From Acidimicrobiia bacterium (GTDB lineage Bacteria > Actinomycetota > Acidimicrobiia > Acidimicrobiales > AC-14), in NCBI GenBank assembly GCA_023265025.1, contig JAHFUP010000016.1:4754-68753 (forward strand): a DNA stretch of 64,000 nt, in the 5' to 3' direction. This document shows positions 2-27,237 of the stretch, piece by piece. Every line of letters begins with the position of its first letter. Position 1 is the stretch's first letter. The position numbers and the translations under genes are program-made. The notes under the pieces were generated by a model that made no database searches, was not told the DNA's origin, and was given only the letters and a program-made list of their open reading frames with translations.

Positions 2-3000
2 GTGCGCAAGTCGGGCACGAGCATGGCGGCGCCGTACGTGGCCGGCACTGTCGCCTGCATGTTCGAAGCGGGTGGCCCGTCCCTGACGGTTCGCGAGATT
101 CGGGCGGCTCTGGCCGAGACCGCCGTCCGCCCGCCGCGAGCCCTCCCCGTAGGGAGGACGGGCGCCGGATACGTCGACGCCGTCGCCGCGGCCGGCGCCG
201 TCGCCCGCCGTCACGAGCGATCCAAGCTGCGAGGAGGAGCCATGGACCAGCCCGGCGAGAGTGCCACGCCAATGACGTCCGCACTCCGTCCCGCGCCGCC
301 GAGCGCCACCGGCGCCCTACCACCTCATGACTTGCCGCCGGCCGCGGTGTTCGACGCCCTCGCCCTCGGTCGGGGGTACGGTGTCCGAGAGAGCGTGGAG
401 CAGCAGTACGACATCCTCGGAGTCCCGCACCAGCCGCTGGCGGCCGCGCTGCAACCGGGAGACGTGGTGGTGTGGCGGGCGTTGGGGGAGGGAGGTCTCG
501 CAGGCGCCTTGACGGTGGCGAGCGCCGAGACCACCGATGCCGCCGAGCTGGCGGCGATGAGCCGTGGCTCCGTGAGACTCGCCCCCGGCCGCTACGCATT
601 CTTCGAAAATGTCGTGGGCGGCAACCGGGTGTTGCGTCATGTGGTGGGGCCTGACGGTCGCCTGCCCGTCGACCGGGTCGTCCTGCGGCCGCGCCGGTTG
701 AGCCGCGAGGCCGCAGGCGCCGACCGGGAGGCCGCGGCCGAGGCACGAACATGCGAGCCCGCCCCCGAGCCCGATCCCACCGGCCGCGGACCGCACCCCA
801 TGATCATGAATGGCAGTCGGCGGCCTGCCGTTGGCCACGCGCAGCAGTGCCTCAACAACTTCATGGAGCAGCGCCTCTCCGGTTCGTTGACCTGCCCCAT
901 CCAGACGGCGGAGGTCCAGCAGCTGCTGGACACGACGGTGAGCCACCTTCGCCAGAACAACCAACTCCCGCTCGTCGTCGACTGCGTGTTCGGCTCGAAC
1001 ACCGATCGGATGACCCGTGCCTTCCAGGCGTGCCACGGGCTGGACCGAGACGGCCGGATCGGTCCCATCACCTGGCCGATCCTCGACGGGTTCGCCACCC
1101 GCACCGCCCCCCCGACGCCAGTCACGGTCGACCCCTTGATCACGACAGCCACGACGGTGGTTGCGGTTACCAAGCCCCACACCAGCCCGCCGCGCGTCCT
1201 GGTCACCCTTCGGACGAGCGCTCCCTTCACCGCCTCGGGCACGCTGACGCGTGCCAGCGCCTCGCCCGCTCCGACGGTTCGGCTGTTTACCGTTGCGACC
1301 GGTGGCCAACCGCTCACCTTCGACGGGCGCGACAACGTCTTCCCCGGCGCCGTGCTCTCCACCGGCCTGCAGCTCTTCGCCGACGCCGTTGGTCCAAGCT
1401 CCGCGGTCGACGACTTCGCGTTGACGCTCACGCTTCAGCCGCAGGTCGGTGTGACGACAGGAGCGCCGGCGTCGGCGCGGATGACTGCCGTGGAACTAAC
1501 CCTCGACGTCGCCCTGTCTCGCACGGCAGCCGGTGAAGGGCCGCCGATGTCGGCGGCAGACAAGGTGTCGACGGGCCGAGCGGTGCAGGTGAGCGACACG
1601 ACGCTCAGCCATGAGCGAGCCATGATCATCGTGCGTCCGCCCGTCCCGGCGGCGTTCGCCGGAACGCTGGTGCTGGAACCGGTAAATCCGACCGTGCGGC
1701 TGTTCCAAACCGAACGGCCCGGTCCCGGCGAGGCCGCCCTCGCCGCTCGGCACGAAGTCGCCGCAGCCAGCGTCCCGGCGACCGGACTCCGGCTGTTCGC
1801 CGAGACCACCGGCGCGTCAGCAGCCGTGCGTGACACTGGCGTACGAATCGGCATCAGGGACGTGGTGGCCGAGGCGGACCGGGTCGCCATGACCGCCATC
1901 CAGCTCGACGTGGCCGCCACCGCTGCCGCCGGCGCCCCTCCGTTGACCTTCGTCCGCTTCGGGCTGTGGGACCAGGCCTACGACGCGGCCCACGACCTGC
2001 TGAACGGAGTGCCCGACGTCCAGAACTTCGTCGGGCGCGACAAGCGCAGGTTCCATGTCCGGGTGTCGGACCCGGCCCCGTCTGGCAGCTGCACGGTCAA
2101 CTGGAAGACATTGCTCGCCGACGGTCTTACGGACGACGACGCCCCCGCCTCGCAGGCGCTCACGCTTCCGGCGCGGGCGGCCGGCGCCCACCAGTTCGTG
2201 TCCCGTGCCGTCATGCTGGTGACGGACAACACAGACCGCAATGTTCCCACTGAGAGCGGCTTGGCTGCGCCGTTTGACACGGGACTACGGCAGGCGAACC
2301 AGAGCAACCATCGCACAAGGAGGGCGAAGATTGATGGGTCGGTGCGAGTCGAGTACGCACCCCAGGCAGGTGTGTCCCTCCGGACGACGCTACCGCTGTT
2401 CGATCGGGTGAATCCCGAACGGCGGCGGGTGAGTGCACGGGTGGTGCGCTACACGGGCGGGGCCGCTCCGGCGGCGGCGTTTCACGTGGCGACACCGGCC
2501 GAGATCGCCATCCAGTTCGCCCATGCCAACGCCCGCTGGAACCAGGTAGGGATCGCTATCGGAGCCCAGGTGACCACGGATCGAGTGATCCCGCCCGCCG
2601 CGCTGGACGGCAGTGGGCTGTACGGCGGCAGCGCCAACAACGCGCACGAGCAGGCCGCACTCGCCGACCTCATCCCCGTCACGCCCGACGACACGCTCAC
2701 CGTGGTGTTCGTGAGCCTCAGCGCTGCGAACGCCTACGCGACGACCGCCCCGCGGAACCCGATCCCTCAACCGGCGCCCAATCCGGCGCTGGGCCTCGGG
2801 GAGCGCCACTTCGTCTTCATCAACACCGGGCTCAACCCCGAAGATGAGACGCTGGCGCACGAGCTCCATCACGTCCTATTCAACCGCTTCGACGGCGGCG
2901 TCGACCGCCAGTTCTTCACGTTCAACACGAATCCCGCTAGCAACCTCGGCCTGGCGGTTCCCGACGCTCGTGTCTACCGACGGGTGCACAACCGGCACTC

Positions 3001-3142
3001 CGCCGATCCTGACAACGACCCGGCCAGCGACAACGTGGTCAACTGGGCGAGGCGGCAGCGCACGGCACGGTTCCCGATCGGCGGGAACGTCGACCCGGCG
3101 GCCACGGCGACCACCGGCAACCGCCTCGCCCAGCCCTTCTAG
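2..3142 (+). CDS. Multidomain protein, 5' end outside the window: tail of an S8 subtilisin-like peptidase domain, ~270-aa module shared with 3699..5942, peptidoglycan-binding-like segment, duplicated middle region, C-terminal HExxH region
   Basis: ORF is open to the window edge. GTSMAAPYVAG (S8 catalytic Ser motif) lies at the N-terminal end. DCVFGSNTDRMTRAFQACHGLDRDGRIGPITWPIL resembles PG_binding_1. LAHELHHVLFN lies near the C-terminus. Confidence 0.8.
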   Translation: MRKSGTSMAAPYVAGTVACMFEAGGPSLTVREIRAALAETAVRPPRALPVGRTGAGYVDAVAAAGAVARRHERSKLRGGAMDQPGESATPMTSALRPAPPSATGALPPHDLPPAAVFDALALGRGYGVRESVEQQYDILGVPHQPLAAALQPGDVVVWRALGEGGLAGALTVASAETTDAAELAAMSRGSVRLAPGRYAFFENVVGGNRVLRHVVGPDGRLPVDRVVLRPRRLSREAAGADREAAAEARTCEPAPEPDPTGRGPHPMIMNGSRRPAVGHAQQCLNNFMEQRLSGSLTCPIQTAEVQQLLDTTVSHLRQNNQLPLVVDCVFGSNTDRMTRAFQACHGLDRDGRIGPITWPILDGFATRTAPPTPVTVDPLITTATTVVAVTKPHTSPPRVLVTLRTSAPFTASGTLTRASASPAPTVRLFTVATGGQPLTFDGRDNVFPGAVLSTGLQLFADAVGPSSAVDDFALTLTLQPQVGVTTGAPASARMTAVELTLDVALSRTAAGEGPPMSAADKVSTGRAVQVSDTTLSHERAMIIVRPPVPAAFAGTLVLEPVNPTVRLFQTERPGPGEAALAARHEVAAASVPATGLRLFAETTGASAAVRDTGVRIGIRDVVAEADRVAMTAIQLDVAATAAAGAPPLTFVRFGLWDQAYDAAHDLLNGVPDVQNFVGRDKRRFHVRVSDPAPSGSCTVNWKTLLADGLTDDDAPASQALTLPARAAGAHQFVSRAVMLVTDNTDRNVPTESGLAAPFDTGLRQANQSNHRTRRAKIDGSVRVEYAPQAGVSLRTTLPLFDRVNPERRRVSARVVRYTGGAAPAAAFHVATPAEIAIQFAHANARWNQVGIAIGAQVTTDRVIPPAALDGSGLYGGSANNAHEQAALADLIPVTPDDTLTVVFVSLSAANAYATTAPRNPIPQPAPNPALGLGERHFVFINTGLNPEDETLAHELHHVLFNRFDGGVDRQFFTFNTNPASNLGLAVPDARVYRRVHNRHSADPDNDPASDNVVNWARRQRTARFPIGGNVDPAATATTGNRLAQPF

Positions 3143-3158
3143 GGACCGGAGGAAAATT

Positions 3159-3581
3159 TTGTCCGATCAACCGCCTGCCGAAGCGACCGATATCGACCAT
3201 GATCTGGCGGTCATTGTCGGCGGCCATTTCACGCCGGACTCGATCGGGCCAGTGGCCTATGACGCACTCGTGGCGAAGGTCCGACTTCGACCGGGCGAGT
3301 ACCTCGACGCCCTCGAACGGCGGTACTTGGGCGGACGGTTCGACCTTGCCGTACATTCCGAGCTGTTCGTGGCGAGCCTGCTGAGGATCGTGGCCGACCT
3401 CGAACCGGCTCGCACGCGCGATTTGGCGCACCGCCTGACAAACCAGCTCGATGTTGCGCTGTCCTCGCGCGACGCGGCGACCGACGTGGAGTCCTTCGAC
3501 GAGGTGCTCGCGCCGGAGACGGCCCGGCGTCTGAGACGCCTCGAGCAGCGGCGCGCCACGCTTCGGGCGCTGTTGGCGTGA
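3159..3581 (+). CDS. Hypothetical 140-aa protein between the two modular proteins (candidate cognate or immunity-type partner)
   Basis: TTG at 3159 is in frame with ORF 2844..3581, preceded by GGAGGA (3148-3153), 17 nt after the upstream stop. No recognisable motif. Confidence 0.55.
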   Translation: MSDQPPAEATDIDHDLAVIVGGHFTPDSIGPVAYDALVAKVRLRPGEYLDALERRYLGGRFDLAVHSELFVASLLRIVADLEPARTRDLAHRLTNQLDVALSSRDAATDVESFDEVLAPETARRLRRLEQRRATLRALLA

Positions 3582-3698
3582 ACGGTCTTCTCGGGCTACT
3601 GCGATCCGACGGCGACACGACAGTCCCTGTCAGCCGCGCCGGGCCCGTGCCGGCGGTAGGCGGCGAGGATCGATCGCTGAGGCAAGGAGGAGCGTCCC

Positions 3699-5942
3699 AT
3701 GGACCAAGAACACGAAGTCCTGCCGGCGCCGGATTCCATGACGCTCGACGGCGCTGCGGTGTTCGACGCCTTCGTACTCGGCAGGGCCCCTGAGCTGCGC
3801 GACCAGGTCGAGCAACGCTACGACATGCTCGCCGCTCCGAACCAGCCTTTCGCGGCACCCTTGGAGCCCGGCGATGTCTTGGTATGGCGTGCCCTTGGCG
3901 AGGGCGGCCTTGGCGGAGCAGTGACCATCGGCAGCGGTGCAGCGTCCGACGCCGCGCAGCCGGCGGTCGCATCTCCTTCCCGCGTCCTCGGCGTGCGCAG
4001 CCGGTCTGTGTCGATCGAGGCCTGGGCGACCGGCGAGCCGTTCTCTCAGGCGGGCGGGCCCGGAGGCCGCCTGGCCCCGGACCGCCTGATCCTGCGCCCG
4101 AAGCGGGCCCACTTTGGAGAGGCGGTTCCATGCGTGCCCACTCCGGAGCCCGATCCCTCAGGCCGCGGGATTCATCCCCTCATCCTGAGGGGCAGCAAGC
4201 GGGCCTCTGTAGGCTACGCGCAGCAGTGCCTCAACAACTGGATCGCCCGCTGCCAAGCGAAGACCGAGAGTTGCACTGACGCGAGCATCCGGACTCAGCA
4301 GTTCATCGCCACGACGTTCGCAAAGCTGTCCGCCAACGGGCAGCTTCCTTTGCAAATTGACTGCGTCTTTGGCGCGAACACCGAGCGGGCAACCACGGCC
4401 TTCCAGCGCTGCAAAGCACTCAATCCGGACGGCAAGATCGGACCGATCACGTGGCCGGTCCTCGACCTCTACGCCACTCCTGGCGTAATCCCAACCGTCC
4501 CTCCCATAGGGACGTCGCTGGACGACTGGCTGAACGCGCCGCTCGGCGGGTGGTCGTCGGCCGTTGCGACGAGCGCAGTCCAGCTTCACACCACGGGCGC
4601 AGCTGCGTTCGCGGCGTTCGCTGATGCGGCCGGGCGTTGCACGGGCGACAACACACTCATCGCTATCTGCGGCTGGGACTTCTACGCGTCGACGCCACTG
4701 CGGCCGGGCCACACCATCGGAGACGCCCTCCGAGACGCCGCAGGGCGGGGCACTCGCGTCCGCGCCTTGTTCGCCCACTTCCCCGTCATCAATGTCGGCT
4801 TGACGAGCCTGCGGCCGCTACCGGGCGACAACACCGGCGCGGTGGCATTCGTGAACGGCCTCCCACATGGGGCCGCGATCCACGATTCCTGGGTGCTGCA
4901 CCACGTCATTCCCGGACGAATCGGGTCGTTGTTGGGCCCGGTGCAGCTCGGGATGCACCACCAGAAGATATGGGTCGTCTACGACGGCACTCGGCTGGTC
5001 ACTTGGATCGGTGGCATCGATTTCAACCCCAACCGGAGTCCCCTTGCGGGAGCCGGCTTCCTGCACGACGTTCAGGCCGAGCTGGAAGGGCCGGCGGCGC
5101 AGCACGCCTACGAAATCCTGCGAGTGCGCTGGAACAACCATCCGGGCGTCCCACCTGGCGTGGTGCTACCCACCCTCTCCGGCTCGGCACCTGCCTCTGC
5201 CGGCCAGCGAACCAGGGTCGTGACGACCTTCGGTGACCCGCGACAGTTCGCCGGGCTCGGCCCCGTTCCCGGCGGCGCGGGCACGCTCCCTGCCTACCCG
5301 TTCGCTCCCTTGGGCAGTAGGTCGTACCGCGACCTCGTGTACCACGCGATCGACCGATCGGAGCGGTTCATCTACGTGGAGGACCAGTACCTGGTCGATG
5401 AAGATGTGGCGCTCCACTTGGCCGGCGCGATGTCGCACGTGCAGGCCTTGATCATCGTCATCTGCGACTCGAACGCTGTGAATGGCGAACTCCATCAGGC
5501 GTGGACCCGCCGGGCGCGGTTTCTGGCTCACCTGGCACCGCATTCGGCCAAGGTCGCGGTCGTCTTTGGTAAGCGGTTCATCCATGCGAAGGTCTGGGTG
5601 TTCGACGATGTGATCGCCATCGTTGGATCTGCAAATATCAACCGGAGGGGCTTTAGGCACGACTCCGAAGCGGGCGTCGCCTTCGGTGACGTTGCCGCGT
5701 CAGGCCGTGTTGCGGCGCTTCGGCGTGATCTCTGGTCCCTACAACTCGGGCCCGCCGCGCCGGCGCCGACCGACCCTCCCGAAGCGAGCCTCCCCGTCTG
5801 GAAGGCGCCTCCGCCAGCGGCCAACGTGCTCGCCTATAACCCCGCGGGAGGCGCTGACGCCGAACCGGTGAAGCGCGAGTTGGCGATGCTCGGCTATACC
5901 GTCGACGAGTTCTGGGAAATTGTCGATCCGGACTGCCCCTAG
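3699..5942 (+). CDS. Phospholipase D-family (dual HKD) protein with shared N-module and peptidoglycan-binding-like segment
   Basis: ATG 3699 is preceded by AAGGAGGAG. HKD-type motifs: HHQKIWVVYDG..GGIDFN and HAKVWVFDDVIAIVGSANIN. The first ~270 aa are paralogous to 2..3142. No N-terminal signal peptide. Confidence 0.85.
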   Translation: MDQEHEVLPAPDSMTLDGAAVFDAFVLGRAPELRDQVEQRYDMLAAPNQPFAAPLEPGDVLVWRALGEGGLGGAVTIGSGAASDAAQPAVASPSRVLGVRSRSVSIEAWATGEPFSQAGGPGGRLAPDRLILRPKRAHFGEAVPCVPTPEPDPSGRGIHPLILRGSKRASVGYAQQCLNNWIARCQAKTESCTDASIRTQQFIATTFAKLSANGQLPLQIDCVFGANTERATTAFQRCKALNPDGKIGPITWPVLDLYATPGVIPTVPPIGTSLDDWLNAPLGGWSSAVATSAVQLHTTGAAAFAAFADAAGRCTGDNTLIAICGWDFYASTPLRPGHTIGDALRDAAGRGTRVRALFAHFPVINVGLTSLRPLPGDNTGAVAFVNGLPHGAAIHDSWVLHHVIPGRIGSLLGPVQLGMHHQKIWVVYDGTRLVTWIGGIDFNPNRSPLAGAGFLHDVQAELEGPAAQHAYEILRVRWNNHPGVPPGVVLPTLSGSAPASAGQRTRVVTTFGDPRQFAGLGPVPGGAGTLPAYPFAPLGSRSYRDLVYHAIDRSERFIYVEDQYLVDEDVALHLAGAMSHVQALIIVICDSNAVNGELHQAWTRRARFLAHLAPHSAKVAVVFGKRFIHAKVWVFDDVIAIVGSANINRRGFRHDSEAGVAFGDVAASGRVAALRRDLWSLQLGPAAPAPTDPPEASLPVWKAPPPAANVLAYNPAGGADAEPVKRELAMLGYTVDEFWEIVDPDCP

Positions 5943-6266
5943 TCAGCTCAGTGATCCATGGCGCAGCCGGTGGGCGGGTGCGCGACGAGGGCTGGTCCGC
6001 GCAAAGCACCCGCAGTCCTCACCGATTGTGCCGTTCGGCAACGGAACCGCCGGCGTAATCGGCCCGTGCCATGGCGAGCCGAGCACCCGAGGGTGTGGGA
6101 TAACGGACGACGAACACATGCTGACTGGGAAGGGATTCGACCTCGGCGATTACTGCTACCAGCATGTTGGGACCGGTGTTCGCCGGTGACATGAGACCGG
6201 TCGCTTACGGCAGCCACTCGACATCCTCGCCCAGAGGCAGTCGACGCCGGCGTCCCGCAAGACGTT

Positions 6267-6430
6267 CCTCCTGCGGGACCCCGGTCGTCGTTCCTCCTGC
6301 GGGACCCCGGTCGTCGTTCCTCCTGCGGGACCCCGGTCGTCGTTCCTCCTGCGGGACCCCGGTCGTCGTTCCTCCTGCGGGACCCGGTCGTCGTTCCTCC
6401 TGCGGACCCCGGTCGTCGTTCCTCCTGCCG
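6267..6430 (+). repeat. Tandem array of the 26-nt unit CCTCCTGCGGGACCCCGGTCGTCGTT (about 6.4 units), locus A
   Basis: Four perfect 26-nt units (6267-6370), two 25-nt variants, then a partial unit. No spacers. Intergenic. Confidence 0.95.
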
Positions 6431-6653: not shown

Positions 6654-6851
6654 CTATCGCACGTTGGGGTCCTCGACCCACTTTCTGCTGATCTCGCGGT
6701 AGCCAGGGGTAGGCCATTCACAGAGGCGATCGTCGCCGCAGCCGCGACACTCATACGTAGGGTTCTGCCTGTCATCGTAAAGCGCGGGTCCGATAAAGCT
6801 AAGGTCGGATGACCCACAGCGGGGACAGCAGTTCACGATCCGTCCGCCCAC
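6654..6851 (-). CDS. Small four-Cys zinc-ribbon-like protein (65 aa)
   Basis: GTG 6851 with GGAGGAG about 9 nt upstream. CPRC...CRGC pattern. GC3 is visibly lower than in neighbouring genes. Confidence 0.5.
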   Translation of the reverse strand: MGGRIVNCCPRCGSSDLSFIGPALYDDRQNPTYECRGCGDDRLCEWPTPGYREISRKWVEDPNVR

Positions 6852-7144: not shown

Positions 7145-7309
7145 GTGTCCGTGGTCGAGCAGCCAGAGCGTGAGCCCCTTCGGTCATTCACGGTCGATGA
7201 CGACCGTCTGACCGGCGCCCTGCCATCCTTGACCCCCGACGAGTTTGCGCTTGATGAGATCACCGACGTCGAGTGGGACGCTTTCCACGCCGCCATCGCT
7301 GACGCGTGA
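7145..7309 (+). CDS. Putative antitoxin (54 aa) of a VapBC-like pair
   Basis: GTG 7145. Stop TGA 7307-7309 overlaps GTG 7306 of the PIN gene (GTGA). Below the ORF-track length cutoff. Called from position only. Confidence 0.55.
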   Translation: MSVVEQPEREPLRSFTVDDDRLTGALPSLTPDEFALDEITDVEWDAFHAAIADA

Positions 7310-7746
7310 GCACCCGGCCGAGCCGGGCCAGCCACGTCGTGGTCGACACCGACGCCGCCAGCTGGCTACTCGACCCCCGGCCACTGCCTCGTGCGGAACG
7401 GGCCCGGGCTCTCGTCGGGAAGCGTGCCCGCGTCGTCTCGTTCGTGACGGTGACCGAGCTTCGATTCGGGGCGCTGCGTGCGGGCTGGGGCGAACTTCGC
7501 CTGCGTCAGCTGGAACGCTCCCTGGGCGACCTTGACGTCATCCAGACGAACGACACCCTGATCGCACGCTGCGCAGCCCTGCGGCATCAGGCCGGTCGGA
7601 CCGGTCATCCTTTGATGCAGAAGGTTCACGAGGCCGACCGATGGGTGGCGACGACTGCGCTGGTGCTCGATCTTGAGCTCGTCGCCGGCGACGGGATCTT
7701 CGAGGGCGTCCCCGGGCTCGCTCTGCACCGCGTGCATCTACCCTGA
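7306..7746 (+). CDS. vapC: PIN-domain ribonuclease toxin
   Basis: VVVDTDAASWLL ... TVTELRFG ... DRWVATTAL pattern typical of PIN/VapC. 4-nt overlap with the upstream small ORF. Confidence 0.8.
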   Translation: MSTRPSRASHVVVDTDAASWLLDPRPLPRAERARALVGKRARVVSFVTVTELRFGALRAGWGELRLRQLERSLGDLDVIQTNDTLIARCAALRHQAGRTGHPLMQKVHEADRWVATTALVLDLELVAGDGIFEGVPGLALHRVHLP

Positions 7747-7817
7747 CTCTCACAGTCCGTCGATGAGTCGACATGCTGAACGAGGCGAGTGCCAAACCCA
7801 GAAACGACCTGCGCCCG

Positions 7818-8448
7818 TCACCTACGGGGGTCTGTAGCCACTGGAGTGACCGCCGGCCGCTGGGCACGCTGACGGGCGACGTCGCGCTGGATGGCCCGGT
7901 AGACAGTGGAGCGGGTGACACCGAACAGGTCGCCCAACTCGGCGACGCTGTGCTCGGCGGCCCGGTGAAGCGCGACCAGGTGGGCCTCCTGGCGGACATT
8001 GAGCTTGGGCTGCTTGCCGCGTAGCCGTCCCTTGGCCTTCGCCACCCGCATCCCTTCCCGGGTGCGCATGCGGATCAGGTCCCGCTCGAACTCGGCGACC
8101 ATGGCCAGCACGTTGAACAACAGCCGCCCGACGGGGTCGGTCGGATCGTGGACCGAACTTCCCACACTCAGCTTGACTTGGCGGCGGGTGAGGACCTCGA
8201 CGATGGCCCGCGCATCCGGCAAAGAACGGGCGAGGCGGTCAAGCTTGGTGACGACCAGGGTGTCGCCAGCCCGGCAGGCGGCCTTCGCTTCTCTGAGGCC
8301 TGGCCGTTCGCGGTTCGTTCCGGTCAGCCCCTGGTCAACGTAGATCCGTTCGGCGCTGACGCAGAGGGTGGCAAGGGCATCCCGTTTGGGCAGTGAGGTC
8401 CTGTTCGTCGGTCGAGACACGGGCGTAGCCGATCAATAGAGCATCCAC
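7818..8448 (-). pseudogene. Serine recombinase (resolvase/invertase family) interrupted by a 1-nt frameshift
   Basis: From GTG 8448 (AGGAGG upstream) the frame reads VDALLIGYARVSTDEQDLTAQ (catalytic Ser motif). ORF 7818..8420 continues RDALATL..RIYVDQGLTGTNRERPGL with a C-terminal HTH. The frames differ by 1 nt at T-run 8385-8387. Confidence 0.85.
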
Positions 8449-8554: not shown

Positions 8555-8610
8555 GCTCCTGCGGGACCCCGGTCGTCGTTCCTCCTGCGGGACCCCGGTC
8601 GTCGTTCCTC
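8555..8610 (+). repeat. 26-nt tandem repeat family, locus B (about 2.2 units)
   Basis: GCTCCTGCGGGACCCCGGTCGTCGTT followed by a perfect unit and a partial CCTC. Lies about 100 nt upstream of the recombinase start. Confidence 0.9.
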
Positions 8611-8799: not shown

Positions 8800-10344
8800 T
8801 CATCTCGGCTGCACCACCTTGAGGTAGTCGTCAATCTGCTTGGCCATGGCCGGGATGCGCTGGGTGTAGCAGATGGCGCCCACGGCTTCGTAGCAGGGGT
8901 AACCCCTGCTGGATGCGAACACCGGGTCGACGTACCGGTAGCCCAGGCTGGACAGGAACGAGATCACGTAGTGACGGCCACCGTGGCCGGGGAGGGCCCG
9001 GACGATCCCTGCGTCGGACCCATAGTTGAACGTCAGGCCAGTCTTGTGGCCGAAGGCGACCTCGGCCGACTGGGCGCAGGGCCGGACGTCGGCCCCGTAC
9101 GAGTACGCGTCGACGATGGCAACACCCGTTGCCGGGTCGACCCATCGGGACGGCACGCCGGCGGGGATGCCGGGTCGGGTGTTCGGGGCGCCGCAGAAGT
9201 TCGACGTGGACAGCGCCTCGTTGTAGCCCTGGTCGTCGAGCAAGGACTTCAGATAGGAGCGGGAGCTGGCGGACAGGAGCGAGGCAGTGACGGGCGTGCC
9301 GTTCGGGCGCTGCCAGAGGGTGCCGCTACCGCCCTCGATGAGCCAGAGGAGCCGGGCCGTGTCGAGCGACGTCATGTGGATCTGGCCCGGCTGCCAGTTG
9401 CCGCCGGTCGTGGGGTCGGTGCCGTTGACCTGGAGCGTGCCCAAGCCGAGGTCGCGGAGCTCGGCGTGCATGGCCGGCAGGTCGTTGCGATCCTGGAGGA
9501 GTTTCAGTAGCGCCCGAGCTGAGCGGTTGCTGGAGACGGTCATCATCGGCTCCATCCAGTCGGCGATGGTACGGGTCTCCACGTCGCCGGCCAACGGTTT
9601 CGGCGTCACCCTGGGAGCTCGGCCGTGCTCGGGCCGCTCGGACATGCTGGCCTCACCCTGGGCCGCCTCGTCGGGCAGCGCGCCGCCCGTGCGGATGTAG
9701 GTGTACTTCTGCTTGAGGCTGAGCTTGCCGGCATCGACGAGACGCATGATGCGGTAGGCGACGACGACCTTGAACAGCGACGCCGGGTACGGCGCCATGA
9801 AGTCGATCGGAGCGCCCTCCCGACCAGCCAGGATGTCGTCGGCCGCGGTGCGGGCCGGGCTGTCGGTCCAGCCCTTGGGCGTGATCAGGTCCCCGGTGGT
9901 CTGGTCGAAGGTGCCGCCGTTGTACCGGTCGATGTCCCACCGCCGCCAGCGGACCGACCCTGTGCCGTAGGTCCCCGCGGCGCCCGCGGACGTGCGATCG
10001 ATCGGGACCACGATGCCGTTGGGGTAGTCACGCGACAACAGCACGTTGGCGACATCTACAGCTCGACCGGCTGCATCCAGCTCGATCACGGCCACGTCGA
10101 CGTTCGGCATGTTCCTGATCGGACCCGCGGGGACGGTGCAGAAGCCGGCGTACGGGCACACGTCCTCGAAGGGCCCGAAGTCGATCGTCTCGCCGAACTT
10201 CGCATCGCGGACCGCGGCCAGGACCGCCGCCTCCAACGAGCTCGGCTGGACGGTCTCGGCGCCGGCGGCCGTCAGGCTGGGGGCCACGGTGACCGCGACG
10301 AGGGCCAGGGCCATCACAATGCTCGAGCGCGCACGCAAGGACAA
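8800..10344 (-). CDS. Secreted serine hydrolase, class A beta-lactamase-like fold
   Basis: Signal peptide MSLRARSSIVMALALVAVTVAPSLTAAGA. SxxK (SLFK), SxN (SSN) and KTG (HKTG) occur in class-A order. Confidence 0.75.
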   Translation of the reverse strand: MSLRARSSIVMALALVAVTVAPSLTAAGAETVQPSSLEAAVLAAVRDAKFGETIDFGPFEDVCPYAGFCTVPAGPIRNMPNVDVAVIELDAAGRAVDVANVLLSRDYPNGIVVPIDRTSAGAAGTYGTGSVRWRRWDIDRYNGGTFDQTTGDLITPKGWTDSPARTAADDILAGREGAPIDFMAPYPASLFKVVVAYRIMRLVDAGKLSLKQKYTYIRTGGALPDEAAQGEASMSERPEHGRAPRVTPKPLAGDVETRTIADWMEPMMTVSSNRSARALLKLLQDRNDLPAMHAELRDLGLGTLQVNGTDPTTGGNWQPGQIHMTSLDTARLLWLIEGGSGTLWQRPNGTPVTASLLSASSRSYLKSLLDDQGYNEALSTSNFCGAPNTRPGIPAGVPSRWVDPATGVAIVDAYSYGADVRPCAQSAEVAFGHKTGLTFNYGSDAGIVRALPGHGGRHYVISFLSSLGYRYVDPVFASSRGYPCYEAVGAICYTQRIPAMAKQIDDYLKVVQPR

Positions 10345-10574: not shown

Positions 10575-10676
10575 CCTCCTGCGGGGCCCGGTCGTCGTTC
10601 CTCCTGCGGGACCCGGTCGTCGTTCCTCCTGCGGGACCCCGGTCGTCGTTCCCTCCTGGGTACCCGTTTCGTCGTT
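10575..10676 (+). repeat. 26-nt tandem repeat family, locus C (4 units, last degenerate)
   Basis: Units of 25, 25 and 26 nt, then a degenerate 26-nt copy (CCCTCCTGGGTACCCGTTTCGTCGTT). Intergenic. Confidence 0.9.
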
Positions 10677-13008: not shown

Positions 13009-13688
13009 TCAGCGGTTCGTCACGGACAGGTGGTAGGTCGCCTCGGTGCAGAATCCTGAGCGGAAGCAACCCCTGAAGTGGACGAGGTGGTCGCCGTGAC
13101 TCAGGGGGGCGAGGAGGAGATGGATCCCACCGGCCACCGCCGGTTCGTACACGCCGGCGGGAGCGCCGAGGACGTTGCCCTCCTCAAGCATCAGCGCGAA
13201 GGGTGGAGACTCGACGAGGTAGTCGCCCATGTTGGTCACCGCCATACCGTCGATCTCGGCCGAGGCGGTCGCGCCGGTCAGGTCGAGCCGCAGCTGGTCG
13301 CGCAGGTCCTGCTCGGTGGCGCCGCCACCGGGGTCGTTGGCCCAGATGGTGTTCACGACAGGAAAGAAGAGGGCCCTCCCCAAGGCACCGAACAAGTGCG
13401 GGTGACCGCGTCCCCGAACGTGCCGGCGAGGAACCATACCGATCCTGACTGGCGGACGGCGCAGTTGGCGCCCGTCGGGTCCGCCACCGGGTTGTCGGCG
13501 GCGGACCCGGCCAGGGCCCACTGCCACCACCGCGCGCTGAGCTCGGCGTAGCCGCCACCATGCGCTCGGGTGGCCGCCGGCAGCACGCCTGAATCGGGGG
13601 CACGGGCAAGCGCTGGGACGCCGCCCACCGTCGCTGCCACGACCAACGCGACGGCGGTCAGCCTCGCGCCCGTGCGGAACAACTTCAT
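13009..13688 (-). pseudogene. Secreted hypothetical protein split by a 1-nt frameshift
   Basis: The signal peptide MKLFRTGARLTAVALVVAATVGGVPALA and ..RTCSVPWG lie in ORF 13353..13688. The continuation ..RALFFPVVNTIWAND.. lies in the frame of ORF 13009..13764. The switch is at C-run 13378-13381. Confidence 0.65.
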
Positions 13689-13905
13689 CGGGCTCCCTTC
13701 CGGGCCTCGCTCTGAGGTCCTCTGCTCTTACGGGCAACCTCGCATCGGTCAGCCCGCCAGACATCCGCCAAATGGCGGATCTCTGGACGACTCGATTGGG
13801 GCCGGACGCCGTAGCATCGGTCGGTGGGCCTCGGCGTCTCGGCTCCTACGGCGGCTGCGCCGACTGGCGGATGTGTCCCGATGAGGCGGGTGACAGGTTG
13901 ACGAA

Positions 13906-14088
13906 GTGGACGTGCAGCTCAGCTTCGAACCTGGCGACCCGCCGCGCGGGCACGTCACCCGGGTCGACTCGTTGGGACCGCCAGGCGAGAAGGACGCCCA
14001 ATCGCCCGACGCGACTGTTCGATTCGAGGGCTGGCTCGGGCTGTTGCGCGTCCTCTCCGACATCCTGGCGGAACCGGACGAGCCCTGA
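13906..14088 (+). CDS. Small hypothetical protein upstream of the LuxR-type regulator
   Basis: GTG 13906. Ends 31 nt before 14119. Protein-like C-terminus ..VRFEGWLGLLRVLSDIL. Weak RBS. Confidence 0.35.
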   Translation: MDVQLSFEPGDPPRGHVTRVDSLGPPGEKDAQSPDATVRFEGWLGLLRVLSDILAEPDEP

Positions 14089-14118
14089 GCGCGACCGGGC
14101 GGCGAGCCCGGGGCAGCA

Positions 14119-16872
14119 ATGAGTTCCTCAGGCCCGATCATCGGACGAGCGCGGGAGCTGGCAATGCTGCGTTCGGTGGTCGAGCGCGTTGGCGCCGGGA
14201 AGAGCCAGATCACCTTCGTCGAGGGTGAGGCCGGCATCGGGAAATCCCGGCTCTTGGCAGAAGCCCTGGAAGCGGCTGCCGTGGGCGGAGTGTTGGTCCT
14301 GGAGGGCAAGGCGGACGAGCTCCATCGGACCCGGCCCTTCGGCGCCATCGCCGACGCCCTCGCCCGCTCGCCACGATCGCTGATCGCCGATGGGCAGGGC
14401 CCGCAGTTCCGAGTCGTCGACGCCCTGGTCGAGTCCTTGGAGGAGACCGCGCTGCGGGGTCCGGTGGTCGTCGCCCTCGACGACCTCCAGTGGGCCGACC
14501 ACGCCACCCTGGTGACCGTGCGTGCCATCGCCGCCCGACTCGGGACGCTACCGGTCGGGCTCATCGGCGCTTACCGCCCGCTGCCCAGGAGCCCGACGCT
14601 CGATGGCACCGTCGACCGCGCTGTGCGCGCCGGCGGCGTTCATGTCCGCGTCGGCTCCATGAGCTCCGACGAGGTCGCCGAGCTGGCACGACGCCACCTC
14701 GGCGAGGAGCCCGGGCCCAAGCTCCTCCTCCGGCTCGCGGGCGCCGCCGGCAATCCCCTGTTCGTGTCCGAGATGGTCGCCGCCCTCGATGAGGAGGGAT
14801 CGATCACCCGCGACGCCGGCGTGGCCGACGTGCATGACGTCGCCCTGCCGGCGCCGCTGCGGCTCACGATCCTGCGGCGGATGAGCGCGCTGAGCGACGT
14901 GACCCTGGAAACCCTCCGGGCCGCCGCCACCCTCGGTGCCACCTTCGCCGTCGCCGACCTGGTCGCGGTCACCGGGCGGACGGCCCTGGAGCTGTCCTCG
15001 ATCTTGTCCGAGCCGCTGCGAGCACGGGTCGTCGAGGAGGCCGGTGACCGGCTCTGCTTCCGCCACGACCTCATCCGGGACGCGATCTACCAGGATCTCC
15101 CGCGAGGACTACGGCAGGAGCTGCACGGCCAGGCGGCCCGGGCCCTGGCCCTCGCCGGCCGCCCACCGGTGGAGGTGGCCCAGCAGTACCTGCTCGGTGC
15201 CTCCCCGAACGATCGGGACGCCATCGCCTGGCTGCGCCGGGCCGCCGATGTCGCGGCGATGCGAGCGCCGGCCAGCGCCATCGAGTTCCTACACCGAGCC
15301 GCGGACGTGGCCGGCGAGGGTGACCCCGAGCGCCATCGCATACGGGTTCGCCTGGCCGACCTCCTCGCGTATTCGGGCCGTCCCGCCGAGGCCGAGGCCC
15401 TGGTGCAGTCCCTCCTCGAGGGCGGGGAAGACCCGTCACAGGACGGCCGGCTCCTGAACACCCTCGTCCAGGCCCTGTTCGCCCAGGGCCGGTGGCGGGA
15501 GATTCCCGACATCGCCGCTGCCGCCTTGATGCGGGTGACCGTCGACGCCGGCATGCGAGCCCGCTTGCTCGCCGAGAGCGCCCTGGCCCACATCTGGACC
15601 GGTGACCTCGACGCCGCGGAAGCGGAGGCTCGACAGGCGCTGCGCCTCGGGGAGGAATCCGACGACCGGCCGGCGATGTGGAACGCCCTCGGCAACCTCT
15701 CGGCGGTGGCCGACAAGCGGGGCCGGTTCCACGAGGGCGTGGACTTGGCCCGCCGCGGCCTGGATCTGGCGCGCGGATCCGATGTCGACGCCCAGCGGCG
15801 GAACCCCCACATCGCCTTGGCCATGGCCCTGGTCACGGCCGACCGTCTCCGTGAGGCCATCGACGTGCTCCAGCAGGGTCGCCAGCAGGGTGAGCGGCTG
15901 GGCACGCTGTGGGACCTCCCCCTGTACCACGCCATGGTCTCCCTGCCCCTCCAGTCGTTGGGTGAATGGGACAGGGCCGCGGCTGAGGCGGAGGCGGCGC
16001 TGGCGTGCGCCGAGGAAGTAGGTGCCGGCGGCGGCCGGGTGGGCGCACTCGGCACACTGGCGCGGATCGCCATCCGGCGGAACCGCCTCGACGAGGCGGC
16101 GCGCTACGTCGAGGTGGCAAAAGCCATCGTCGACGAGTCGGGCCCGCAGTGGGGCAGCGTGCCGGTCGTCGCCCTGCTCGAAGCGCAGGGCGACCTGGAC
16201 GAGGCGGCAAAGCGTCTCGCCGCGGGCTGGGAATCGGCGGTTCGGGGGCGCATTGCGGAGGCGCAGGTGGGCATCGGGCCCGAGCTGGTGCGTCTCGCCC
16301 TGGCCACTGGTTCTCGGAGCTACGCCGACCATGTGGCCGGGGCGTTAGAAACGCTGGCGGCCATGGTGCGGGTGCCCGTCGCCGACGCCGGCGCGTTGCT
16401 TGCGAAAGGTCGCCTTACGGGCGACCCCGAGACGCTGCTGGCCGCGGTCGAGGCCTACCGAAAGGGCCACCGCGCCCCGGCGCGCGCCGACGCCGCCGAG
16501 GTGGCGGCGGTTGCGCTGGCCCGCGCCGGCCGATCGAGGGAAGCGGTCTCCCTGCTGGAAGAGACCATCACGACGTTCGAAGCGGTCGACGCCAAGAGAG
16601 ACCTCGCCCGGCTCCGCAGCACGATGCGGGAACTGGGCCTACGACGCGGAACTCGTTCACCCCACCGGTCGGCCCGAACCGGATGGGAGGCGCTGACCGC
16701 GACCGAGACCCAGATCGTGACGCTCGCAGCACAGGGCCTCACCAATCCGGAGATCGGGCGGCGACTCTTCATCTCGCCGCGCACGGTCCAGTCCCATCTC
16801 GCCCATATCTTTCTGAAGATCGGCGTGACCTCGCGCGTCGAGCTTGCCACTCAGGCCGCGTCACACCTGTGA
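14119..16872 (+). CDS. Large ATP-binding LuxR-family (LAL-type) transcriptional regulator
   Basis: Walker A GEAGIGKSRLL, a long helical/TPR-like middle region, and a C-terminal LuxR HTH (LTATETQIVTLAAQGLTNPEIGRRLFISPRTVQSHLAHIFLKIG). Confidence 0.9.
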   Translation: MSSSGPIIGRARELAMLRSVVERVGAGKSQITFVEGEAGIGKSRLLAEALEAAAVGGVLVLEGKADELHRTRPFGAIADALARSPRSLIADGQGPQFRVVDALVESLEETALRGPVVVALDDLQWADHATLVTVRAIAARLGTLPVGLIGAYRPLPRSPTLDGTVDRAVRAGGVHVRVGSMSSDEVAELARRHLGEEPGPKLLLRLAGAAGNPLFVSEMVAALDEEGSITRDAGVADVHDVALPAPLRLTILRRMSALSDVTLETLRAAATLGATFAVADLVAVTGRTALELSSILSEPLRARVVEEAGDRLCFRHDLIRDAIYQDLPRGLRQELHGQAARALALAGRPPVEVAQQYLLGASPNDRDAIAWLRRAADVAAMRAPASAIEFLHRAADVAGEGDPERHRIRVRLADLLAYSGRPAEAEALVQSLLEGGEDPSQDGRLLNTLVQALFAQGRWREIPDIAAAALMRVTVDAGMRARLLAESALAHIWTGDLDAAEAEARQALRLGEESDDRPAMWNALGNLSAVADKRGRFHEGVDLARRGLDLARGSDVDAQRRNPHIALAMALVTADRLREAIDVLQQGRQQGERLGTLWDLPLYHAMVSLPLQSLGEWDRAAAEAEAALACAEEVGAGGGRVGALGTLARIAIRRNRLDEAARYVEVAKAIVDESGPQWGSVPVVALLEAQGDLDEAAKRLAAGWESAVRGRIAEAQVGIGPELVRLALATGSRSYADHVAGALETLAAMVRVPVADAGALLAKGRLTGDPETLLAAVEAYRKGHRAPARADAAEVAAVALARAGRSREAVSLLEETITTFEAVDAKRDLARLRSTMRELGLRRGTRSPHRSARTGWEALTATETQIVTLAAQGLTNPEIGRRLFISPRTVQSHLAHIFLKIGVTSRVELATQAASHL

Positions 16873-24364: not shown

Positions 24365-24518
24365 CCCGGCGGTCGTCCTGATCGGCGACCACGCCGCCAC
24401 CGGAGACGAGCTTCCCAAGCGGTACGGGGCCACTTACCGGATCATCGCCTACCGGTCGGCCGGGGAGACGCTGCGTGCGCCTCAGCGGCTCGGATCCATG
24501 GCGTCTGGCTCCCGATGC

Positions 24519-24560
24519 GACCCCGGTCGTCGTTCCTCCTGCGGGACCCAGGTCGTCGTT
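24519..24560 (+). repeat. 26-nt tandem repeat family, locus E (about 1.6 units)
   Basis: GACCCCGGTCGTCGTT + CCTCCTGCGGGACCCAGGTCGTCGTT. Lies between the oxidase fragment and the IS remnant. Confidence 0.85.
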
Positions 24561-24639
24561 CGGCGAGCGGGTATGGCCAACGGAGCCACTCGGACGAGCT
24601 CGAGGGGGGCGAACTCGGAGTGAAGACCGCCACCCCGGC

Positions 24640-27162: not shown

Positions 27163-27237
27163 GGTCGTTCATCCTGCGGCACCCCGGTCGTCGTTCCTCC
27201 TATGGGAACCCGGCCGTCGTTCCTCGTGGGGCACCGG
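27163..27237 (+). repeat. 26-nt tandem repeat family, locus F (about 3 degenerate units)
   Basis: CATCCTGCGGCACCCCGGTCGTCGTT, CCTCCTATGGGAACCCGGCCGTCGTT, CCTCGTGGGGCACCGG. Confidence 0.8.

Follow-up and report, generated by a model that had tools for sequence, protein, structure and literature searches.

Among described systems, those closest to the gene cluster reported here are the S8-PTS/ABP systems of Gram-positive bacteria, whose hallmarks are a separate Sec-exported protease and toxin, a signal peptide, a BetaH domain and toxin heads that are mostly nucleases. Such polymorphic toxins, activated by a protease of peptidase family S8, are a precedent (PMC9424270, PMC12582261) for the cluster that we find at the start of a 64,000-nucleotide stretch of an Acidimicrobiia genome (contig JAHFUP010000016.1, positions 4,754 to 68,753; hereafter the window). 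Here a gene for an S8 protease with a C-terminal HExxH-motif head (gene A) is followed by a small open reading frame (ORF) and by a gene for a related protein with a phospholipase D (PLD) head (gene B). A first-pass annotation had read A and B as modular effectors with the small ORF as a partner, and our analysis partly supports this. We consider it somewhat probable that A and B belong to a protease-centred polymorphic effector system whose heads are aimed at a competitor. The system type may be that of protease-coupled polymorphic effectors, and the conserved block of genes upstream of the protease may be a genuinely new machine.

With a G+C content of about 70%, the window has the composition of a high-GC, soil-type bacterium. 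All three ORFs lie on the plus strand and show coding-type codon bias, given below as the G+C content at third codon positions (GC3). The small ORF is called as a gene in the source assemblies and, as had been noticed from the sequence, has a strong ribosome-binding site (RBS): its TTG start lies six bases past GGAGGA at 3148-3153. The ATG of B at 3699 is preceded by AAGGAGGAG at 3684-3692. The products of A, B and the small ORF all lack a hydrophobic segment at the N-terminus, which for B bears out the earlier statement that it lacks a Sec signal. The features are as follows.

2..3142, plus strand: gene A, the 3' 1046 codons of a 1552-residue protein whose start lies outside the window; GC3 0.84
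2..214, plus strand: C-terminal end of the S8 catalytic domain of A (PF00082, Peptidase_S8, residues 2-42, E 1e-6), with the catalytic-Ser motif GTSMAAP at 14-34
326..691, plus strand: N-dom of A, an unnamed, beta-rich domain (hidden Markov model, HMM, from an 18-sequence alignment, E 2e-38)
749..1114, plus strand: peptidoglycan-binding domain (PGB) of A (HMM E 6e-53; PF01471 20.8 bits, below the cut-off of 23)
1115..1921, plus strand: spacer of A, common only to the related protein P0006; no Pfam or NCBIfam match
1922..3139, plus strand: HExxH head of A, with HELHH at 2858-2872; 60% identity to the C-terminus of P0006
3148..3581, plus strand: small ORF (140 residues) with its RBS; TTG at 3159; G+C at codon positions 1/2/3 0.76/0.46/0.79
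3684..5942, plus strand: gene B (ORF 3699..5942, 747 residues) with its RBS; GC3 0.80
3738..4100, plus strand: N-dom of B (HMM E 3e-36; AlphaFold2 local confidence, pLDDT, ~90 over the core strands)
4131..4484, plus strand: PGB of B (HMM E 4e-53; PF01471 27.2 bits; AlphaFold2 pLDDT >95)
4497..5939, plus strand: PLD-superfamily head of B, with HKD motifs at 4956-5027 and 5583-5642 (PLDc_2, E 3e-13)

The first-pass annotation had claimed that A and B share a module of about 270 residues and diverge completely after it. Both statements hold: BLASTP of the two translations (window 2-3139 against 3699-5939) returned one strong alignment, the module (139/305 identities, 46%, E 3e-65), with no other similarity and none past the module. 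The three blocks quoted in support of the claim are present at nucleotides 341 in A and 3753 in B (AAVFDA), 752 and 4131 (C.P.PEPDP), and 1061 and 4440 (GPITWP.L). The module is, however, two separable domains, N-dom and PGB. They stand 370-600 residues apart in L004b, P0013, P0025 and L007, with an M15_4 peptidase between them in L007, and some relatives carry two copies of PGB. Of the 61 S8 relatives that reach at least 700 residues, 29 carry N-dom after the S8 domain, often as their C-terminal end, and the domain also opens stand-alone satellite proteins. To recover relatives of the module an exhaustive profile search was needed, as a word-indexed search with the B module gave two PG-binding proteins only; 18 representatives were aligned out of 36 found at E<1e-30. 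A metagenome scan with a 6-sequence module alignment gave three true relatives among 26 loci. The AlphaFold2 model of the module improved from a pLDDT of 52 (unusable) with a two-sequence alignment to 81 with the 18-sequence alignment.

We predict from sequence and model that PGB is a peptidoglycan-binding domain of disulfide type. In the 18-sequence alignment it is a variant of PG_binding_1 (PF01471) with an inserted extra helix and four to five conserved cysteines, behind a conserved lead-in, C.P.PEPDP.G[RK]G.HP. B belongs to the family by both bits and fold, and A scores below the cut-off but is homologous to B. Foldseek matched the PGB model to the PG-binding domains of SleC (top), SleB, endolysins and a Streptomyces Zn DD-peptidase. 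The peptidoglycan-binding-like segment seen earlier is thus real, and the remark that the module was not recognised as a named family stands for N-dom only.

N-dom spans residues ~17-135 of B, with the consensus L.PA.LFDA...F.VVA.PG..L...PGDLLV.RALGEG.LA...RR..D..GR.P.D.L.LRP and no conserved Cys or His across the 18 sequences. Foldseek against the PDB gave it no significant match (CHAP at probability 0.13-0.16), so that of the two halves only PGB was matched by structure prediction. Against viral models the whole module aligns to endolysins of NlpC/P60- or CHAP-plus-PGB type, largely via the PGB half. An inactive papain fold for N-dom is accordingly a lead only, given the weak CHAP match, the viral matches falling mainly on PGB and the lack of conserved Cys or His. 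A SleC-like pro-domain was rejected, as the profile meets SleC only in the PG-binding stretch.

N-dom identity within a locus, which could be compared for two pairs, is 47.9% in the window and 76.7% in L043; 103 cross-locus pairs reach at most 47.5% (median 30.9%). Because the same-locus pairs exceed every cross-locus pair, the sequences suggest that N-dom co-evolves with a shared local partner. The two PGB copies of the window, by comparison, are 53.4% identical against a cross-locus median of 53.0%. Recent recombination of cassettes between A and B was considered and rejected, since synonymous sites are saturated in the DNA alignment and the starts do not align.

The missing part of gene A was recovered from L001, an ENA metagenome contig that encodes B, matches the window at 99.99% identity and reaches 5.7 kb beyond it on the upstream side. 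There full-length A (L001 4251-8909, 1552 residues) has 506 codons upstream of the window edge and the order S8 protease, N-dom, PGB, spacer, HExxH head. The S8 domain that had been placed ahead of the module is well supported: the window fragment scores 28.7 bits against PF00082 (cut-off 21.8) and the N-terminal 600 residues of the full protein score 120.5 bits, while PDB subtilase matches to the window part stop near residue 71. The motifs DWGCD, HGTHV, GNYY and GTSMAAP and the catalytic residues D114, H190, N295 and S513 are all present, and by these motifs the protease is predicted to be catalytically intact. None of the top 120 S8 relatives has a signal-peptide-like N-terminus, and most of them start MDPAL.

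The junctions between S8 and N-dom in both A and L007 retain a strong in-frame Shine-Dalgarno sequence and start codon. In A this is GAGGAGGAG-cc-ATG at 231..244, at a position homologous to the start codon of B; the in-frame ATG at 242 opens with MDQ, as does B. L007 has CAGGAGGAGACC-GTG at the same junction. These signals could be an internal start, yielding an effector without S8, or the relic of a gene fusion.

Gene B is predicted from its sequence to be a satellite effector composed of N-dom, PGB and a PLD-type head with two HKD motifs. Its head scores 50.2 bits against PLDc_2 (cut-off 27) and matches PLDc in two stretches (38 bits, E 1.4e-9), and phospholipases D are matched in the PDB at ~1e-6. 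Both HKD motifs reported earlier were found: the second is canonical (HAKVWVFD...GSANIN, 5583-5642), and the first (HHQKIWVVYD...GGIDFN, 4956-5027) retains H-x-K and GG.D.N with the Asp displaced one residue further along. The HExxH head of A is metallopeptidase-like by its HELHH motif, a putative zincin; by contrast with the assignments to PF00082 (A), PF01471 (B) and PLDc_2 (B), all above cut-off, it has no Pfam, NCBIfam or PDB sequence match above threshold. Its best family match is a weak one to Peptidase_M78 (E 0.14, 12.4 bits against a cut-off of 22), and matches to polyester hydrolases (E ~0.01) were judged spurious. P0006, the closest relative of A, is the only other protein with this spacer and head (51% identity over 963 residues, from the module to the C-terminus), and HELHH is conserved in it.

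Profile searches and Pfam scans of database relatives show that a constant module with swapped catalytic ends, as the first-pass annotation had proposed, extends well beyond A and B, and that variable C-terminal heads on a conserved chassis, one of the defining features of polymorphic toxins, are found across the family. Directly after PGB stand PLD, protein-arginine deiminase (PAD), DUF4056/lipocone, tyrosinase plus DUF7868, or HExxH heads, and the relatives that were scanned also contain domains of M15_4 peptidase, glucosaminidase and amine oxidase type. The arrangements seen are the following.

S8-fused: S8, N-dom, PGB, tyrosinase plus DUF7868
S8-fused: S8, N-dom, PGB, PAD
S8-fused: S8, N-dom, PGB, further sequence, PGB, DUF4056
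S8-fused: S8, amine oxidase, N-dom, PGB
S8-fused: S8, PGB, amine oxidase, N-dom, PGB, PAD (Actinoplanes aureus)
S8-fused: S8, further sequence, two M15_4, glucosaminidase
S8-fused: S8, N-dom, M15_4, PGB, PLD
Stand-alone: N-dom, PGB and either PAD, PLD or DUF4056
Stand-alone without N-dom: PGB and either DUF4056 or PAD

Because PLD is joined to S8 in L007, L040 and L043 and stands alone in the window, the same head evidently moves between fused and satellite positions. The lipocone superfamily, whose 'CapCone' family is DUF4056, is related to the lipid-II-directed toxin TelC (bioRxiv 10.1101/2025.01.14.632903). The idea that these are envelope-targeting effectors suits the PLD, M15, glucosaminidase, GH25, VanY/muramidase and lipocone heads; it does not obviously suit PAD, tyrosinase or amine oxidase. 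We also observed an unnamed conserved block after PGB in P0005 (residues ~975-1215), P0007 and P0093, which may be another head type; it has the motifs LSLFQN...HRNHF.CQA and HIFGHSG.HG.FG...LHGCN and no Pfam match.

As the earlier reading of the small ORF had led one to expect, homologues of the module are paired with other heads and an adjacent small gene, a pattern seen for HExxH and PAD heads. The genes that lie directly downstream of each type of head are these.

HExxH head (window, L039): genes for 140 and 131 residues, 29% identical (2/2 loci)
PAD head (L003, L005, L040, L041): a helical protein of ~190 residues, 43-56% identical (4/4 loci), of an unnamed family, encoded at L003 12121-12720, L005 7496-8053, L040 8592-9182 and L041 10122-10676
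Tyrosinase head (P0003 contig): PpoB2 (PF09948), an accessory rather than an immunity protein
PLD head (window, L004, L040, L043): no conserved downstream partner
DUF4056 head (L006, L036, L044): no conserved downstream partner

Members of the ~190-residue family are candidates for inhibiting, or conferring immunity to, bacterial PADs of vertebrate type.

Gene A is the final gene of a conserved seven-gene, protease-centred operon. The six genes upstream of it in L001, on the same strand and tightly spaced, encode a regulator, four small proteins and a PASTA protein.

GerE-type response regulator
REC-like protein of 103 residues
Protein of 282 residues with an acidic DYEDFEDF tail and a glycine-zipper segment
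Protein of 186 residues ending CPECWGRD..CRECQGRG (Zn-ribbon, CxxCxGxG)
Coiled-coil protein of 195 residues with a Gly-rich hydrophobic C-terminus
Protein of 127 residues with one transmembrane helix and a PASTA domain

This constant block recurs in 14 further distinct loci (16 locus identifiers: L003, L004, L006, L007 and L033-L044), and its order is kept in every locus examined: glycine zipper, Zn-ribbon, coiled coil, membrane-anchored PASTA or immunoglobulin-like protein, S8. The gene layout of the P0003 contig matches as well, a comparison of layout only. The hosts include Actinoplanes, Agrococcus, metagenome-assembled genomes of Solirubrobacteraceae and Pseudonocardiaceae, the cyanobacterium Calothrix and several metagenome contigs; the regulator varies between loci and may be a GerE response regulator, a BTAD protein or a sigma-54 activator. 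A search with the first 600 residues of the protease retrieved at least 792 proteins from many phyla at E<1e-30, with identities of 45-57%. The C-terminal extras of S8 relatives include PG_binding_1, OmpA, GH25, GH46, PF05708, DUF2272, DUF4056 and an LCAT/PGAP1 lipase. The four unnamed small proteins of the constant block have no Pfam, NCBIfam, PADLOC or PDB match and reach PHROG families only at E>0.005. No description of the operon was found in the literature, covered here as open-access text, and PADLOC-DB v2 has no model for it, giving generic matches only (PLD to DrmC, PASTA to PD-T4-6, S8 to 'subtilase'). The gene cluster is thus apparently undescribed.

We propose the following mechanism. 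PGB would tether each head to the cell wall. N-dom would serve as a coupling or recognition domain that recruits satellites, either to the protease or to the small proteins of the constant block, and it would mark the place where the protease cuts. The S8 protease would cut the polyprotein in cis and the satellites in trans, so that wall-anchored heads are released or activated and go on to damage the envelope or the proteins of a competitor. Heads that could harm the producer's cytoplasm before export, such as HExxH and PAD, would be kept in check by a small protein specific to the head, from the gene directly downstream; the product of 3159..3581 would neutralise the HExxH head of A in the producer. 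Export would proceed through the constant upstream block, with its glycine-zipper, Zn-ribbon, hydrophobic-tailed coiled-coil and membrane-anchored PASTA proteins. More tentatively, the constant block, its REC-like protein included, together with the Csp-like S8 protease that lacks a signal peptide could form, across Actinomycetota, Cyanobacteria and other phyla, an undescribed export route or a protease-gated lysis device that deploys multi-effector polyproteins and N-dom-tagged satellites; under that reading N-dom would be the targeting tag of an undescribed machine.

An external target is favoured by the conserved cysteines of PGB, by attack-type heads and by the finding that partner genes are confined to heads whose action would be cytoplasmic. 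Several observations weigh on the other side. No member has a recognised secretion signal or trafficking domain, so that export is assumed; in particular, none of the trafficking domains by which polymorphic toxins are recognised (Sec, TPS, PAAR/VgrG, WXG/LXG, MuF, PVC) was found among the Pfam matches. The proposed cutting by the S8 protease has no known cleavage site. No significant structural match was found for N-dom, and the S8 proteins of L040 and L044 have no detectable N-dom although their satellites do; simple docking of N-dom on N-dom is therefore not general. No conserved partner gene was found for PLD, DUF4056 or peptidoglycan-hydrolase heads in the loci examined, and the small ORF is linked to the HExxH head by two loci at 29% identity. 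Furthermore, two loci lie beside defence-type genes, which also fits a self-directed role.

Two known export routes were considered and rejected. For this window, a link to contractile injection systems (PVC/eCIS) fails because the gene tables of all loci are free of sheath, baseplate and ATPase genes, and a link to type VII secretion fails because WXG and LXG domains are absent, as are nearby Ecc genes. The contractile link was considered because P0006 (L039 2130-7730) has a faint T4 gp19-like tail-tube domain at residues 643-736, between the protease and N-dom, at 27.6 bits against a Pfam cut-off of 28.2; L039 has no other contractile-system genes.

The alternative that survives best, which we regard as possible and on the whole unlikely, is that the cluster is a self-directed death or lysis device, acting in abortive infection or developmental death, in which a signal-activated cytoplasmic S8 protease frees lytic heads and membrane-active proteins that destroy the cell's own envelope, and safety inhibitors would be supplied by the small genes downstream. 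That none of the 120 proteases has a signal peptide is consistent with this, as is an endolysin-like chassis bearing lysis-type heads, which recalls holin-dependent endolysins. The constant block, moreover, has a glycine-zipper protein and hydrophobic-tailed proteins, with weak PHROG matches to an Rz-like spanin and to tape-measure glycine zippers, and the operon has a dedicated regulator. Protease-gated death effectors are documented in defence (bioRxiv 10.1101/2025.11.14.688446; PMC7159879), and the two defence-type neighbourhoods are those of L041, beside Schlafen-like (Schlafen/AlbA_2), weak Piwi-like and DpnII (DpnII-MboI) genes (74-1159, 13221-16104), and L038, beside a TIR gene (TIR_2, 1-89). 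However, such neighbours occur at only 2 of ~15 loci, PADLOC models match the components only via generic domains, and no nucleoside triphosphatase (NTPase) or obvious phage sensor is present. The conserved PGB cysteines point to an oxidising, extracytoplasmic site of action, and the tyrosinase (with PpoB2), amine oxidase and GH46-type domains look more like secreted attack enzymes.

Regulated remodelling of the cell wall, in which a Csp-like subtilase activates wall-bound zymogens during a developmental transition as in the Csp-SleC pathway, seems to us improbable. Its attraction lies in the protease, whose best curated match is the CspBA/CspC germination family (E 1e-30, one continuous stretch over residues 98-527), in the SleC zymogen as top structural match of PGB, and in the membrane protein of the operon with PASTA, a muropeptide-binding domain. 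Yet A falls far short of membership in the Csp families, with 105.9 and 78.4 bits against NF040809 and NF040808, whose cut-offs are 1250 and 675, and N-dom has no sequence match to the SleC pro-region. The operon is found in non-sporulating lineages, and its heads vary strongly among close relatives, unlike those of a housekeeping system; they include PAD, tyrosinase, amine oxidase and PLD, and head-specific partner genes exist. In addition, the window cluster lies ~1.4 kb from PIN and resolvase genes, suggesting mobility.

The small ORF starts 17 nucleotides past the stop of A. In L039, the contig of P0006, the HExxH-head gene is followed after 9 nucleotides by a gene for 131 residues (7739-8131) whose product is homologous to that of the small ORF (29% identity over 87 residues, pairwise E 2e-12). 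This is the only homologue detected: a word-indexed search of 5.8 billion proteins found the small ORF itself and nothing else, and no library searched contained a matching family. Because this sole homologue follows the only other HExxH head, and PAD heads are paired likewise, the small ORF is best read as a putative inhibitor or immunity partner of the HExxH head of A. The earlier proposal of a cognate partner would thus stand for A and not for the PLD protein B. That the small ORF, which lies between A and B, could be co-transcribed with B and has no database family, is instead a partner of B or an unrelated lineage-specific ORF we think very doubtful, since no PLD gene is called in the remainder of the short L039 contig (PhoX comes next, on the other strand), no such gene stands before or after the PLD-head genes of L004, L040 and L043 (in L040 and L043 the next gene follows directly), and the short gap, strong RBS and codon bias argue for translational linkage to A.

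Several other features lie downstream of gene B. At 6654-6851 (minus strand), in the otherwise gene-poor stretch that follows it, is a 65-residue ORF of zinc-ribbon type with two CxxC pairs (CCPRCGS...CRGCG) and weak codon bias (GC3 0.71). A 26-bp unit, CGTTCCTCCTGCGGGACCCCGGTCGT, forms short intergenic tandem arrays at 6263-6428, 8556-8610, 10582-10652, 24517-24562 and 27178-27223; the first array has 6.5 copies at 97% match, and the 20-base core has 15 matches against 0.05 expected. The unit resembles an intergenic repeat family dispersed in this genome. Between the first two arrays lie a PIN-like ORF (7306-7746, plus strand) and a serine resolvase gene (PF00239, 7818-8420, minus strand), a region that could represent a small mobile insertion or the boundary of an island. 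The PIN assignment was made by eye from the translation, and the gene caller used on L001 instead placed a 123-residue minus-strand ORF there (window 7367-7738). At 8800-10344 (minus strand) is a 512-residue protein with a hydrophobic N-terminus and a Beta-lactamase2 (PF13354) match in the source-contig annotation.

If the proposed effector system is real, it would add a widespread family of protease-linked, head-swapping effectors, with delivery genes that match no known family and at least 792 related proteases in many phyla. The recently validated principle of subtilase-activated antibacterial toxins would extend from Sec-exported Firmicute proteins to a structurally different system that Actinomycetota, Cyanobacteria and other groups carry. 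New, unnamed domains with testable roles would come with it, namely N-dom, the HExxH head and the proteins that partner HExxH and PAD heads, and bacterial PAD domains of vertebrate type, tyrosinase and lipocone domains would gain a biological context. The constant block would also offer a handle on how large wall enzymes without signal peptides exit or kill a cell.

Our findings can be set beside five kinds of described system. Phage endolysins and holin-mediated release, including the holin-plus-muramidase idea of 'type 10' secretion, likewise involve wall enzymes without signal peptides that join PG_binding_1 to a catalytic domain and are encoded alongside small membrane-active proteins, and Foldseek aligns the module with them as a whole. 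Here, however, there is no recognisable holin or spanin (PHROG matches only at E 0.03-0.09), N-dom lacks conserved Cys or His and is thus not an active amidase, and the genes are chromosomal, carry their own regulator and lie outside any prophage. Clostridial Csp proteins are also subtilases without signal peptides, with an insert in the catalytic domain, and act on a peptidoglycan-binding lytic pro-enzyme, SleC; in SleC entry 9h68, a chain of 480 residues, the PG-binding stretch that was matched covers residues 428-466. Unlike in that pathway, the scores here are far below thresholds, the taxa, operon and domain order differ, and the heads are variable and mostly unrelated to cortex lysis.

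Coupling by effector-associated domains (EADs; Kaur et al. 2020, PMC7159879) offers a parallel for N-dom, which occurs on the core peptidase and at the N-terminus of separate effectors and so shows the distribution pattern of EAD1-11; the likeness stated here is one of distribution. In both cases adjacent copies are the most similar, a variety of effectors occurs and release is presumed to depend on a peptidase. The cluster differs in having no NTPase, vWA-MoxR or STAND core, and N-dom is beta-rich, whereas EADs are mostly helical. That paper (PMC7159879) does not describe the present system, and its sole mention of subtilisin concerns the unrelated NucA-trypsin system.

Classical polymorphic toxins (Zhang et al. 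2012, PMC3482391) share with this family the recombination-like swap of C-terminal heads on a conserved chassis, downstream stand-alone cassettes, head-specific downstream genes and a peptidase in the same polypeptide. They differ in that no known trafficking domain (Sec, type V to VII secretion, PAAR, MuF, PVC) is present here, the peptidase is N-terminal rather than just before the toxin, several heads have no immunity-like gene, and the DNA of A and B is too diverged for a recent cassette exchange. Finally, the S8-PTS/ABP systems (PMC9424270, PMC12582261, PMC13556192) resemble the cluster in the genetic coupling of an S8 protease to constant-front proteins with alternative C-terminal heads, in a cognate small gene directly 3' of some heads and in proteolysis as the proposed activation. 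Measured against those systems as defined by Li, Tan and Zhang (2022) and Colautti et al. (2025), A and B fall outside, with a fused S8 domain and no signal peptides: the protease lacks a signal peptide and is usually fused to effectors, and the toxins lack one as well. The constant parts are instead N-dom and a PG_binding_1 variant, the heads are mostly enzymes that modify the envelope or proteins, and five further conserved upstream genes are always present.

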